Shown one piece after another: positions 1,443-56,531 of a stretch of 64,000 nucleotides of DNA. The notes beneath the pieces were generated by a model, which saw only the letters and a list, made by a program, of their open reading frames with translations, did no database searches and was not told the origin of the DNA. A program made the position numbers and the translations under genes. Location: contig ONYW01000003.1 of NCBI GenBank assembly GCA_900322215.1, positions 9,199-73,198 on the forward strand. Reading direction: 5' to 3'. The DNA is from an uncultured Eubacteriales bacterium. GTDB lineage: Bacteria > Bacillota > Clostridia > Christensenellales > CAG-917. Numbering within the stretch: the stretch's first letter is position 1; the number at the start of each line of letters is the position of its first letter.

Positions 1443-2363
1443 ATGAAAAAATACGACGTAATCATTGTTGGCGCAGGTCCTGCAGGTATGACGGCGGCTC
1501 TCAACTGCCTCCGCGCAGGAAAGACGGTGCTTTTGCTTGAAGGTGAAAGCATCGGCGGTCAAATCGCTCTCTCTCCGAGAGTCGAAAACTACCCTACCGT
1601 CCAAAAAGCCGCGGGCGCGGACCTCTGCGACCAACTCTTTCAACAAATCACCGAATGGGGCGTAGAGTTTGAGTTTGAAGGCGTGACAGGCATTGAAAAG
1701 AATGAGAAATCTTTTGTCGTCACAACCGACTACAACACCTACGAAGGCACGGCGGTTATCCTTGCCACAGGCGTCAAGGCAAGACATATCGGCGTCGAAC
1801 GCGAGGAAGAACTCGTTGGCAAAGGCGTGAGCTACTGCGCACTCTGCGACGGCATGTTCTACAAGGGCGAAGACGTGGCAGTCATCGGCGACGCAAACAC
1901 GGCTCTTCAATATGCCTTGAACCTTGCAGGCTATTGCAAATCCGTGCATATCTGCATGCTCTTTGACAAGTTCTTTGCAGACAAAGCTCTCGTGGACTTG
2001 GTGCTTGCTCAACCAAACGTCAAAGTGACAAAGAACATCGCGCTCAAAGAGTTTTTGGGAGACGAAGAACTCTCCGGTCTCCGCTTTGAAAACACAAAGA
2101 CGAAAGAGGAATTCAAGGTGGACTGCAAAGCGGCGTTTGTGTGCATAGGTCAAGTGCCGAACAACAAGATGTTTGCAAACCTCGTCGAACTCGACAAAAA
2201 CGGCTTTATCGTCTCCGACGAAAACTGCGCCACTTCCTGCGACGGTATCTTTGTCGCCGGCGACTGCCGTACAAAGAAGATCCGCCAATTCATCACCGCG
2301 GCTTCCGACGGCTCTATTGCCGCTTTCTACGCTTCCCAGTACGTGGACAAGCAAAAGGCGTGA
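1443..2363 (+). CDS. trxB: Thioredoxin-disulfide reductase (FAD/NAD(P)-binding)
   Basis: GAGPAG FAD motif, CALCDG redox CxxC, GIFVAGD. Start moved to ATG 1443 (MKKYDVIIVG), behind a purine-rich RBS. Confidence 0.9.
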   Translation: MKKYDVIIVGAGPAGMTAALNCLRAGKTVLLLEGESIGGQIALSPRVENYPTVQKAAGADLCDQLFQQITEWGVEFEFEGVTGIEKNEKSFVVTTDYNTYEGTAVILATGVKARHIGVEREEELVGKGVSYCALCDGMFYKGEDVAVIGDANTALQYALNLAGYCKSVHICMLFDKFFADKALVDLVLAQPNVKVTKNIALKEFLGDEELSGLRFENTKTKEEFKVDCKAAFVCIGQVPNNKMFANLVELDKNGFIVSDENCATSCDGIFVAGDCRTKKIRQFITAASDGSIAAFYASQYVDKQKA

Positions 2364-2477
2364 GCGAGCGACCTACGTCGTCAACTACAACAAATACACC
2401 CCGCCATGTACGCAAGTACATTGGGCGGGGTGATTTATTTTGTTTCCTTGTATCTCATCTCGCTCACGCCTTTTGCT
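2350..2477 (+). repeat. Dispersed palindromic element, copy A (ERIC/MITE-like)
   Basis: Perfect 19-bp terminal inverted repeat (2350-2368 / 2459-2477), core GTCAACTACAACAAA (2380-2394), inner hairpin CACCCCGCC-ATGTAC-GCAA-GTACAT-T-GGGCGGGGTG. About 90 nt match copy C with ~8 mismatches. Confidence 0.85.
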
Positions 2478-2523
2478 AAATTGTATATATCATATACGGA
2501 TATAAAACAAAAACTTTTCTATA

Positions 2524-2552
2524 TTTACATATTGAAATTAGTAATATATAAT
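2524..2552 (+). promoter_or_regulatory. Sigma-A-type promoter for the esterase gene
   Basis: TTTACA (2524-2529), 17 nt, TATAAT (2547-2552), in an AT-rich stretch. Confidence 0.55.
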
Positions 2553-2674
2553 ATAGATATCAATAATAATCCACAATGGAGCAGATGAAATTTGCGAGAA
2601 TTCATGGAGCGGATTTTTAATCCGTGAGAATTCATGACACGACGTGTCTATTCATCTTGCCATAAGGAGCAATT

Positions 2675-53612: not shown

Positions 53613-54536
53613 ATGATCTCTTATAACGGACTTGAAGCGAAATTAAATCAAAAAGGCATTAAAAAATCCGAACTCACAAAAGCACTCGGGATTTCTTCGC
53701 GCACTATCGCAAAGATAGGCAAAGGCGAAAAACTTTCCCGCCTTACTATTGAAAAACTTTGTAATTATTTTGAATGTTCGCCAAATGATTTATACAAGGA
53801 AGTTGCGGACAGCCATATTCTTCAGATCCTTAGAGAAGAAATGGAACATAGAATTTCAGGCGGGCTTTATCACGAGTTGCAAATCAGAATGACCTACAAT
53901 TCAAACCATATCGAGGGTAGTAAACTCACAGAAGACCAAACGAGGCTTATATTTGAAACAAACACGCTTGACGTTGGGGACGGAATCCCTGTTGATGACG
54001 TTTTGGAGACCGTACATCACTTCCGCGCAATAGACTATGTCATCGAAACGGCAGATAAACCGCTGACCGAAGACGATATAAAGCACTTGCATTATATCTT
54101 GAAACACGACACAAAAGACTCAACCCTTGCTTGGTTTGCCGTTGGAGATTATAAAAAACGTGCGAACGTTGTCGGAGGAAAAGAAACAACAAAACCAAAA
54201 GACGTACCGACAAAAATGGCAGAACTACTTGCCGAATATAATGCGAAAAAGAATGTAAATATCAATGATATTATTGCTTTTCATGCCGCCTTTGAACATA
54301 TTCACCCTTTTCAAGACGGAAATGGAAGAGTCGGCAGGCTTATCGCGCTCAAAGAATGTTTGAAAAACAACGTTATTCCGTTCATCATAGAAGACTCAAA
54401 AAAGATGTTCTATTATCGTGGCCTCTCCAAGTGGGGCAAGGACAATAACTACCTTATAGACACCTGTCTGGACGGGCAAGATACTTTCACAAAGTTGCTC
54501 GATTTGTTTGAGATTAAGCATAAAATTCAATTATAA
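53613..54536 (+). CDS. Fic-family protein with N-terminal Cro/C1-type HTH
   Basis: Fic motif HPFQDGNGRVGR; inhibitory motif SNHIEG; N-terminal HTH KSELTKALGISSRTIAKIGKGE. Confidence 0.92.
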   Translation: MISYNGLEAKLNQKGIKKSELTKALGISSRTIAKIGKGEKLSRLTIEKLCNYFECSPNDLYKEVADSHILQILREEMEHRISGGLYHELQIRMTYNSNHIEGSKLTEDQTRLIFETNTLDVGDGIPVDDVLETVHHFRAIDYVIETADKPLTEDDIKHLHYILKHDTKDSTLAWFAVGDYKKRANVVGGKETTKPKDVPTKMAELLAEYNAKKNVNINDIIAFHAAFEHIHPFQDGNGRVGRLIALKECLKNNVIPFIIEDSKKMFYYRGLSKWGKDNNYLIDTCLDGQDTFTKLLDLFEIKHKIQL

Positions 54537-54652
54537 ACCGCTTGGTGAGATACAAAAAACAAAATAAATAACGCCACCCTGTGTGCTAAATGTACGCGGT
54601 GGCGTTTATTTGTTGTAGTTGACGACGTAGGTCGCCCGCTCGCTCGGTTTTA
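54534..54652 (-). repeat. Dispersed palindromic element, copy D
   Basis: Runs exactly from the fhs TAA to the Fic TAA; both ends read TA-AA(A)CCG; core at 54609-54623; hairpin AACGCCACC...GGTGGCGTT. Confidence 0.85.
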
Positions 54653-56329
54653 GAATAGGCCGGTGATGCGGCCGCTTGCATCCACGTCAATGCGTTCGGC
54701 GGCAGGAGACTTGGGAAGTCCGGGCATCGTCATGATGTCACCCGTAAGCACGACGATGAAGCCTGCGCCGGCAGAGACTTTGACGTTCTTTATCGTGACC
54801 TTAAAGCCTGTCGGAGCGCCGAGTTTTGTCGGATCGTCGGAAAAACTGTACTGCGTCTTTGCGATGCAAACAGGGCATTTGTCAAAGCCGAGCGCCGTGA
54901 GCGTCTCGATTTGTTTCTTTGCATTTGGCTGGAAGATGACGCCGTCGCCGCCGTAAATCTTTGTTACGACCGCGTTTATCTTGTCCTCTATGGACATATC
55001 GTCCGTGTAGGAGAAGGTGAAATCGCCCTTTTCTTCTTCGCAGAGTCTGACGACCTCGCGCGCGAGTGCTTCACCGCCCTTGCCGCCTTCCGCCCATACG
55101 GTTGAGAGGACGACGTTGACGCCGAGTTCTTTGCACTTTGCGATGATAAAATCTATCTCTTTGTCCGTGTCTGTCGGGAAACGGTTGACCGCTACGACGC
55201 ATGGAAGTTTGTAAACGTTTTTGATGTTGGAGACGTGGCGGAGGAGATTAGGAATTCCGCGTTCTAACGCGGTCAAATCCTCTGTCGCGAGAGATTTTTT
55301 GTCAAGGCCGCCGTGCATCTTTAGAGCGCGAACCGTTGCCACGACGACGACTGCTGACGGGGTGAGATTTGCCATACGGCACTTGATGTCGAGAAACTTC
55401 TCCGCTCCGAGATCCGCGCCGAATCCCGCCTCCGTGACGGCATAGTCGCCGAGTCTCATAGCGCATCTCGTCGCGGTCACGGAGTTGCACCCGTGCGCGA
55501 TATTCGCAAACGGACCGCCGTGTACGAACGCAGGAGTGCCTTCAAGCGTTTGGACGAGGTTTGGCTTTAATGCGTCTTTGAGGAGCGCAGCCATCGCGCC
55601 TGCGGCTTTGAGTTCGCCGCAAGTGACAGGTTTGTCGTCATAGGTGTAGCCTACTATAATGCGCGCAAGGCGGTTTTTGAGGTCCGTAATAGAGTCCGAG
55701 AGGCAAAGGACAGCCATGATCTCGCTTGCGACCGTGATGTCAAAGCCGTCTTCGCGAGGTACGCCGTTTGCCTTTCCGCCGAGTCCGTCCACTACGAAGC
55801 GAAGTTGACGGTCGTTCATGTCTACGCAACGTTTCCAAGTGATCTTGCGAGGGTCTATGCCGAGCGCATTGCCCTGTTGAATATGGTTGTCAAGCATAGC
55901 GGCGAGAAGATTGTTTGCCGCGCCTATCGCGTGGAAGTCGCCCGTGAAGTGGAGGTTTATGTCCTCCATCGGCACGACCTGTGCGTATCCACCGCCTGCC
56001 GCGCCGCCCTTGACGCCGAATACGGGCCCGAGAGACGGCTCTCTGAGCGCGACGATAACGTTCTTTCCAATGCGCTTGAGTCCGTCCGCAAGACCGATAG
56101 TCGTCGTTGTCTTGCCCTCGCCTGCAGGCGTCGGCGTGATAGCCGTCACGAGCACGAGTTTTCCGTCCGGGCGCTTGACTTCGTCAAGAAGGCTCAAATC
56201 GACTTTCGCTTTGTACCTGCCGTATTGCTCGATATATTTCTCGTCAACACCCGCAGTCTTTGCTATCTCAAAAATCGGCTTCATTTCGCACTCTTGTGCA
56301 ATCTCGATATCGGTCTTGTAAGTTGCCAT
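54650..56329 (-). CDS. fhs: Formate--tetrahydrofolate ligase
   Basis: [51 protein letters not shown]. Confidence 0.97.
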
Positions 56330-56404
56330 AATTTACCTCTTATTTGCTTTTATGTTATATTGATTTGGAATAAAGGTTTGCTCGTTCTAACATTTTATAT
56401 CTGT

Positions 56405-56531
56405 TAAAACTGCGCAGGATTGATGGATGACGAGGAAGGGTGCTTTGGGTGACCAACCCAGTGTACAATGGCGTACACGGTTGGGCAAACAAAGTGCGCT
56501 GACAAAGTCAGGCGCAATCCTGTGCGGTTGT
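56405..56531 (-). repeat. Divergent copy E of the palindromic element
   Basis: Terminal inverted repeat 14/17 (56406-56422 / 56515-56531) resembling the AAAACCGC terminus; inner hairpin CCAACC-GTGTAC-GCCATT-GTACAC-T-GGGTTGG; lacks the 15-mer core. Confidence 0.5.

Follow-up and report, generated by a model that had tools for sequence, protein, structure and literature searches.

A family of hairpin repeats of ~125 nucleotides (nt) lies at the ends of unrelated housekeeping genes throughout the genome of an uncultured Christensenellales bacterium (G000; 1.59 Mb in 65 contigs, 94% complete), and six of its copies fall within the 64-kb stretch analyzed here (contig C24, positions 9199 to 73198; "the window"). 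With slightly better than even confidence, we read the family as a non-autonomous, DNA-level mobile element that lands on a T/A-run, either at the stop codon of a gene or beside it, and in the direction of that gene. Comparative sequence data show high turnover of the copies, with apparent targeting to, or retention at, gene ends. A sequence-only reading of the window had proposed a non-autonomous multicopy hairpin element, similar in size to ERIC and Correia elements, at gene 3′ ends, and the present analysis supports that proposal.

A modular hairpin family at stop codons

Iterative nhmmer searches of the genome identified ~190 copies, which together make up 21 kb, or 1.33% of the sequence. 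The family is neither small nor local. We defined the forward strand as AAAACCGC, var1, GCGA, var2, TTGTCA, var3, and an apex (GTAC, loop, GTAC), followed by var3′, CCTTCCT, var2′, TCATC, var1′, and GCGGTTTT. Copies were placed and scored with R1, a covariance model built from the family in this analysis. No two of the 120 full-length copies are alike. The copies are grouped at 153 loci, 31 of which are tandem arrays of two or three with orientation never mixed (a few of these "arrays" are a single copy split by a 42-nt insert), and several copies lie at contig ends.

RNAalifold, applied to 58 diverse copies, returned one long imperfect hairpin with 38 pairs in four helices. Changes on both sides were seen in 30 of the 38 pairs. 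Overall, 92.3% of cells were paired, compared to 70.1% in column shuffles (0 of 500 attained the observed level) and 28 to 46% with slid partners; the covariation anticipated by the sequence-only reading is therefore far above chance. The helices occur as discrete alleles (for var2, for example, CCTGC/GCATC, ATAGC/GCTCT, and CTGAC/GTCAT). Within a helix, the two halves are almost perfectly associated, with a normalized mutual information (NMI) of 0.87 for var1 and 1.0 for var2, whereas neighboring helices on the same arm are almost independent (NMI of 0.17 for var1 and var2, versus 0.11 when shuffled; 0.09 for var2 and the apex, versus 0.07). We concluded that the helix modules reassort freely while their halves stay matched. 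The unpaired linkers (GCGA, TGTCA, GTAC, TTCCT.G, and TCATC) are conserved in sequence and are retained even in distant AT-rich or GC-rich relatives. Terminal inverted repeats, AAAACCGC and GCGGTTTT with a covarying extension, are also present: A3, A4, and T123 to T125 are invariant or nearly so, C5-G127 is the most frequent pair, and conservation of the terminal letters is highest for AAC and GTT. Reading the element by eye for an internal promoter or a small open reading frame (ORF) revealed no convincing spacing.

We refer to the gene whose stop codon adjoins the forward 5′ end of an element, and which runs in the same direction, as the owner gene. An ORF of at least 100 codons in the direction of the element ended between −30 and +60 nt of 111 of the 143 intact forward 5′ ends; the same stop criterion identified only 17 of 146 opposite ends. 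For 73 of the 111, the distance was −3 to 0, such that the T of TAA immediately precedes the A-run. In ~25 copies, the gene enters the arm by 9 to 21 nt and stops at a TAG or TGA that is carried by the element. Counted by locus, the owner gene lies at a distance of 0 or −1 in 104 of 133 cases. The pattern was replicated in 103 loci from other metagenome-assembled genomes (MAGs), which were collected by motif pattern without any constraint on the flanks (104 of 126 forward 5′ ends versus 11 of 119 at the other end). The start of the next co-directional gene is a median of 211 nt downstream. At its 3′ end, the element has a GCGG stem end and a T-run of 2 to 7 (mode, 4 to 5). This arrangement, a G+C-rich stem that runs directly into a U-run where a transcription unit ends, corresponds to that of an intrinsic terminator.

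The junctions lie inside A-runs of variable length (2 to 8), and empty sites already read TAAAA(C), which suggests microhomology at a T/A-run. A T precedes the A-run in 67 to 77% of copies and an A follows the T-run in 53 to 76%, consistent with either a TA duplication or a stem that is 1 bp longer. The TA target suggested by the sequence-only reading therefore holds only as a statistical tendency, and no parent transposase, of the IS630 type or otherwise, was found.

Other explanations for the position and polarity fared poorly. A preference for TAAAA does not by itself account for the position, since stop codons account for only ~6% of the free TAAAA sites in non-coding DNA. Insertion between the T of the stop codon and the base after it was rejected, the right flank being AC or AT in most cases and not AA, AG, or GA. 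An orientation set by replication was mostly rejected, since ~20 of 26 owner genes on the lagging strand retain the gene-linked polarity. The forward strand coincides with the G-rich strand for 83 to 87% of copies, compared to 70% of genes, as judged by local GC skew, which is a noisy proxy. Polarity mostly tracks the gene more than it tracks the replication strand.

Turnover between species and strains

We compared the whole genome with that of a near-complete congener (G005; 10 contigs, 100 copies). Of the owner-gene ends of G000, 54 have a filled counterpart in G005 and 61 an empty one; starting from G005, the corresponding numbers are 52 filled and 20 empty. At 33 shared sites with full-length elements, the orthologous elements are 0.69 identical, compared to 0.65 for random pairs, and only 6 of the 33 are each other's best match. 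Nearly every copy nonetheless has a match of 0.77 to 0.90 elsewhere in the other genome, and the var2 alleles form the same set with the same rank order in both species. In the 10 best-conserved orthologous pairs, 42 base pairs have changed on both sides with pairing kept, versus 29 that are broken. These data show that pairing is maintained at resident loci and that resident copies are replaced by other module combinations at the same junction.

Replacement was also seen at the level of strains. Among undirected Logan metatranscriptome contigs, we identified one, from a strain with 97 to 98% identity, that runs from the 3′ end of the formate-tetrahydrofolate ligase (FTHFS) gene into an element whose junction is the one in the window but whose modules differ. 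This RNA-derived contig crosses from the gene into the element. Population DNA runs at this site revealed no polymorphism.

Strand asymmetry and the search for a mobilizing enzyme

The two strands of the element do not fold equally well. The strand antisense to the owner gene has a mean minimum free energy of −57.9 kcal/mol with RNA parameters, versus −49.1 kcal/mol for the sense strand, and is the better folded in 111 of 120 copies; with DNA parameters, the values are −31.8 and −27.6 (101 of 120 copies). In other genomes, the antisense strand is the more stable in 89 of 119 copies. Opposed bases give G:T on the antisense strand 337 times and on the sense strand 197 times, and mismatches on the sense strand are pyrimidine-pyrimidine in 673 cases and purine-purine in 48. 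Unpaired positions are 77% purine on the bottom (antisense) strand versus 25% on the top strand, the GC and AT skews of which are negative. Recent single changes at paired columns leave an antisense wobble in 60 cases and a sense wobble in 24 (P = 1e−4). Mutation bias was rejected as the source of the wobble asymmetry, since unpaired columns show the opposite bias or none. Biased mismatch repair on sense-strand hairpins may be an alternative cause.

The asymmetry bears on the simplest alternative, that of a purely cis-acting RNA element, a 3′-untranslated region (3′-UTR) stabilizer or intrinsic terminator that has spread by ordinary duplication and is kept because each gene needs it. Such an element would be expected to fuse with the stop codon in the sense of the gene and to continue into a T-run, to leave space for a promoter ahead of the next gene, to retain its pairing at resident loci, and to be entered by transcripts, all of which we observed. 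However, half of the sites are empty in the congener, one empty site in a further genome (G011) has a plain terminator, and in one pair the native terminator is still present downstream of the element. Moreover, the content of shared sites is replaced rather than conserved, tandem arrays of two to three copies exist, the family is patchy among genera, and both wobble pairs and stability favor the antisense strand. We therefore consider the cis-acting RNA explanation unlikely. The suggestion of the sequence-only reading that the element might be a structured 3′-UTR RNA under structural selection is in keeping with its position but not with the strand, since it is the antisense strand that keeps its folding.

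Integron attC sites have a published signature (PMC5027507) of a bottom strand that folds better, contains more G:T pairs, and has loops rich in purines, and all three features are found here. A second alternative is therefore that the repeat is a dispersed attC-like single-stranded DNA recombination site. In this scheme, a tyrosine recombinase, perhaps the only one in the genome (Xer-type), or another protein would act on the folded bottom strand as its substrate and carry out the insertion, excision, and exchange of terminator cassettes exactly at stop codons. The resemblance extends to the 123- to 126-nt repeats of Vibrio cholerae, which are likewise imperfect hairpins of similar length with variable sequence and conserved structure (PMC5027507). 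Further likenesses are the AAC and GTT termini, the location at the ORF 3′ end in fixed polarity (here often providing the stop codon), and the different content at the same junction between strains. In contrast to attC, the termini read AAAAC/GTTTT instead of RYYYAAC/GTTRRRY, the extra-helical base sits on the opposite arm, the internal unpaired motifs are conserved too, and the copies are scattered beside core genes in conserved synteny rather than in cassette arrays. No integron integrase was found in G000. Its single tyrosine recombinase is Xer-like (XerS/XerC) and scores 62 and 43 bits with integron-integrase models whose cutoffs are 265 and 435 bits. On this evidence, an attC-like site is a rather improbable explanation. 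The Xer-type gene (C45, 10667 to 11752; 361 amino acids) adjoins a sigma-factor gene.

A third alternative is that a RAYT (a Y1/HUH transposase) mobilizes the family as a REPIN-type element, or that the family is a classical miniature inverted-repeat transposable element (MITE) derived from a DDE insertion sequence (IS) that has been lost from MAG assemblies, in which multicopy IS elements are often dropped. REPINs and REP-BIMEs of Pseudomonas and Enterobacteria are non-autonomous, extragenic hairpins of ~100 nt that occur in up to hundreds of copies, undergo compensatory changes in their arms, form tandem clusters, and persist within lineages (PMC3116915), and they resemble the present family in each of these respects; the terminal inverted repeats and the statistical T and A at the flanks would also fit a transposed element. 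However, REP doublets are reported to have a random extragenic distribution (PMC3116915), in contrast to copies bound to stop codons in one polarity. The present family also differs in its Bacillota host, in the absence of a RAYT, and in having helix modules that reassort between conserved unpaired motifs, where REPINs have a pair of conserved REP cores and a free spacer. The Y1/RAYT domain (PF01797) has no match in G000. Of 11 genomes sampled from the same genus, 9 lack it, and these 9 include all eight in which the copy number is saturating. Y1-like genes elsewhere in the taxonomic family do not track copy number, and no element lies within 1.5 kb of them. DDE families are equally sparse: the IS630 domain DDE_3 (PF13358) was detected in 1 of 61 genomes, the IS4/IS5 domain DDE_Tnp_1 (PF01609) in 2 of 21, and IS110 (PF01548) in 3 of 21, with none in G000 or G005. 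We regard a REPIN-type or MITE origin as quite improbable.

Retro-mobility, with target-primed reverse transcription, would suit both the microhomology at the A-run and the polarity; it was rejected because G000 and most element-rich genomes lack RVT_1. BLAST comparison of the G000 ORFs with each other identified no multicopy protein gene, and the sole repeated "ORF" belongs to a second, non-coding repeat. The genus looks essentially free of insertion sequences.

We return to the reading that we favor, a DNA-level mobile hairpin that lands at stop codons. Insertion could proceed by microhomology with, or preference for, a T and the A-run that follows it. Purifying selection against a strong bidirectional hairpin between a promoter and its gene might then leave mainly those copies that lie between a stop codon and the next promoter. 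Judging from the sequence, the mRNA hairpin and T-run may serve the owner gene as a putative intrinsic terminator or 3′-end protector. Spread and module exchange could occur via the folded single (bottom) strand, or by template switching or gene conversion provoked by the hairpin; the matched halves with free reassortment, the replacement at fixed junctions, and the antisense folding argue for recombination that involves a folded single strand or is provoked by the hairpin. The mobilizing enzyme might be a host function or an unrecognized protein.

Several observations weigh against this reading. Neither a transposase nor a reverse transcriptase nor an integron integrase follows the distribution of the element, and the case for mobility is therefore a purely comparative one. 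In the comparison with G005, neither a clean target-site duplication nor an exact pair of empty and filled sites could be defined because intergenic DNA is too diverged at ~83% gene identity. That so many sites are shared (52 of 74) while their content is replaced could reflect in-place conversion instead of re-insertion. Finally, G:U pairs are not enriched on the sense strand, contrary to expectation if a sense RNA hairpin were the selected function.

Window copies, distribution, and related elements

All five stretches of the window that the sequence-only reading had named as repeat copies are present, both by sequence and by R1 placement; a sixth, degenerate copy that it had not listed (copy F) lies at 52040 to 52160 on the minus strand. 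Much of its description of these copies also holds. The exact 15-mer GTCAACTACAACAAA occurs exactly four times, a count attained in 0 of 100 shuffles. The switch of the inner stem between CACCCCGCC/GGGCGGGGTG and AACGCCACC/GGTGGCGTT is real in the sequence, the outer inverted repeats are matched inside each copy, and all copies have the same orientation relative to the gene that ends there. Copy E, which it had called divergent, in fact belongs to the majority subfamily; it is the four 15-mer copies that form a minor subfamily, with 10 members genome-wide. The presence of 4 of these 10 in a single 64-kb window points to local copying. The owner genes of the six copies are mutually unrelated, and every copy obeys the stop-codon and polarity rule.

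Copy A (2352 to 2475, plus strand) is a full-length member of the 15-mer subfamily (R1 score, 104.6 bits) with an outer stem of AAAAGGCG/CGCCTTTT instead of the usual AAAACCGC/GCGGTTTT. Its owner, identified from ORFs and Pfam as a pyridine-nucleotide disulfide oxidoreductase gene (1299 to 2363, plus strand), ends at a TGA (2361 to 2363) within the 5′ arm. The site is occupied in this genome, in G005, and in G011, by three versions that differ in their modules. Copy B (3575 to 3662, minus strand) lacks ~37 nt of its 3′ arm and is matched by R1 at 3560 to 3643 (24 bits). Its owner encodes prolyl-tRNA synthetase (ProRS; 3661 to 5112, minus strand), the TAA of which (3661 to 3663) is fused with the 5′ A-run. 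At the ProRS stop codon, G005 has a full-length copy with other modules at a junction identical to that of this genome (TATTAA|AA), and G011 has an ordinary terminator in place of the element. The shortened end of copy B adjoins the stop codon of an esterase gene (2675 to 3574, plus strand) that reads into an element in G005 and G011; in this genome, the esterase gene appears to retain only a remnant of an element. Relative to this genome and G011, the esterase gene and its 3′ element are inverted in G005 (C6, 69772 to 70625; L036), where the genes on either side keep their orientation.

The remaining copies all lie on the minus strand. Copy C (10781 to 10904; 107.9 bits) is full length, and its owner, a methyltransferase gene (10888 to 11526, minus strand), reads 17 nt into the 5′ arm to a TAG at 10888 to 10890; the orthologous gene in G005 has no copy behind it. 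Copy F lacks the GTAC apex (58.4 bits) and begins 4 nt past the TAA (52165 to 52167) of an FMN-reductase gene (52165 to 52791, minus strand). Copy D (54534 to 54651; 54 bits) has a small deletion in the outer 3′ arm. The FTHFS gene (54650 to 56329, minus strand) is its owner, with the TAA (54650 to 54652) fused with the 5′ A-run, and its far end meets the TAA (54534 to 54536) of a Fic/HTH gene (53613 to 54536, plus strand). Copy E (56406 to 56531; 109.1 bits) lies between the FTHFS start and a formate/nitrite transporter gene (56508 to 57161, minus strand), which is its owner and reads 22 nt into the 5′ arm to a TGA at 56508 to 56510. This site is empty in G005 and G011 (FTHFS, 83% identical), where the transporter has a longer C-terminal tail. 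The insertion of copy E swapped the long Q/P/E-rich tail seen in G005 and G011 for six element-encoded residues, TAQDCA. Two weak R1 matches (14 to 16 bits) at 7082 to 7231 on the plus strand could be the remnant of a decayed copy or chance.

Composite variants occur outside the window, at C36 (1643 to 1851), C25 (1855 to 2060), C30 (25630 to 25838), and C52 (73204 to 73404). In these, model positions 1 to 98 and 57 to 126 are split by a shared 42-nt sequence (gacttcggcgttgccg.gggca.ccacctcgtt.gcttgggc). The second repeat family is ~280 nt long, with copies that are 90 to 95% identical, and is found at C17 (35753 to 36200) and at least 17 other places; the copy nearest the window (C24, 7147 to 7425) lies ~2 kb before its start. 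The apparent ORF of this repeat is spurious. The repeat includes a segment of the hairpin family interrupted by the 42-nt insert, and 10 of its 18 long copies lie 50 to 160 nt from a hairpin element in a constant relative orientation.

Of the 61 genomes examined from the taxonomic family, 38 have R1 matches; these represent 7 of 16 genera in a patchy pattern. Within this genus the count reaches saturation in most genomes, but three have only 2 to 13 scored copies, compared to at least 56 in others. Weaker multicopy relatives were found in 14 of the 299 genomes sampled from other Clostridia and 10 of the 300 from other Bacillota (~3 to 5%). Contrary to the sequence-only reading, the element is not lineage specific. 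In public records, the carriers are mostly gut or rumen MAGs with names such as "Christensenella sp. UBA...," CAG:475, CAG:238, Stercoripulliclostridium, and Limadaptatus. Bins of the "H07xxx-L1_cleanbin" series that are labeled Phascolarctobacterium succinatutens (L060, L065, L088, and L089), Butyrivibrio crossotus (L076, L099, and L124), and Anaeroplasmataceae (L062) also carry the family; these bins are mislabeled, since the proteins flanking their elements are 78 to 95% identical to those of this genome (78% for the Anaeroplasmataceae bin). One well-formed member each was found in a lake "Alphaproteobacteria" bin (L054, 6973 to 7095) and an "Oxalobacter" bin (L067, 4403 to 4520). These two appear genuinely foreign: their flanking genes are not Christensenellales-like, and an ORF next to the "Oxalobacter" member is HrcA-like by eye. 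It is possible that they represent occurrence across phyla or, alternatively, mis-binning.

Full-text searches of the literature found no description of the hairpin family. The Rfam covariance models, in both gathering and permissive modes, gave no match to the element; only two tRNAs attained the gathering score, and the best sub-threshold matches on elements are chance hairpins (for example, 26 bits with a cutoff of 45). With no match to an Rfam or IS family, and with empty sites seen in relatives, nothing that the sequence-only reading had named as contrary to it was observed. ERIC elements (also known as IRU; ~127 bp) and the Correia elements of Neisseria are imperfect palindromes that are transcribed near genes, possibly have TA ends, and lack a transposase of their own. 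Their resemblance to the present family is in size and palindromy; they occur in different phyla, and we know of no report of either being fused with stop codons or strand asymmetric. SPRITE, of Streptococcus pneumoniae, is likewise an interspersed Firmicutes repeat that resembles a Rho-independent terminator at gene ends; going by its description, the present family is longer, modular, and widespread in Clostridia. REPIN/RAYT and attC/IntI come closest as models of the mechanism, but for both of them the defining enzyme is missing. We concluded that the family is an interspersed hairpin repeat of the REP-, ERIC-, or MITE-like kind, without a catalog entry and with an attC-like strand signature.

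The many copies at contig ends mean that the family breaks MAG assemblies; it also reveals mislabeled bins and could serve as a strain marker. A single hairpin family makes up ~1.3% of a streamlined, essentially IS-free 1.6-Mb genome and marks the 3′ end of approximately 1 gene in 10, in hosts that are abundant, uncultured rumen and gut Clostridia. If the attC-like explanation were true, it would mean that integron-style single-strand recombination operates genome-wide on the ends of housekeeping genes in IS-free gut Clostridia. We know of no report of a repeat that combines fixed-polarity fusion with stop codons, freely reassorting modules whose halves stay matched, content that is rapidly replaced while the junctions are conserved, and an attC-like asymmetry of the strands. 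This combination, without a known mobilizing enzyme, makes the spread and swapping of repeats without a transposase a directly testable question.

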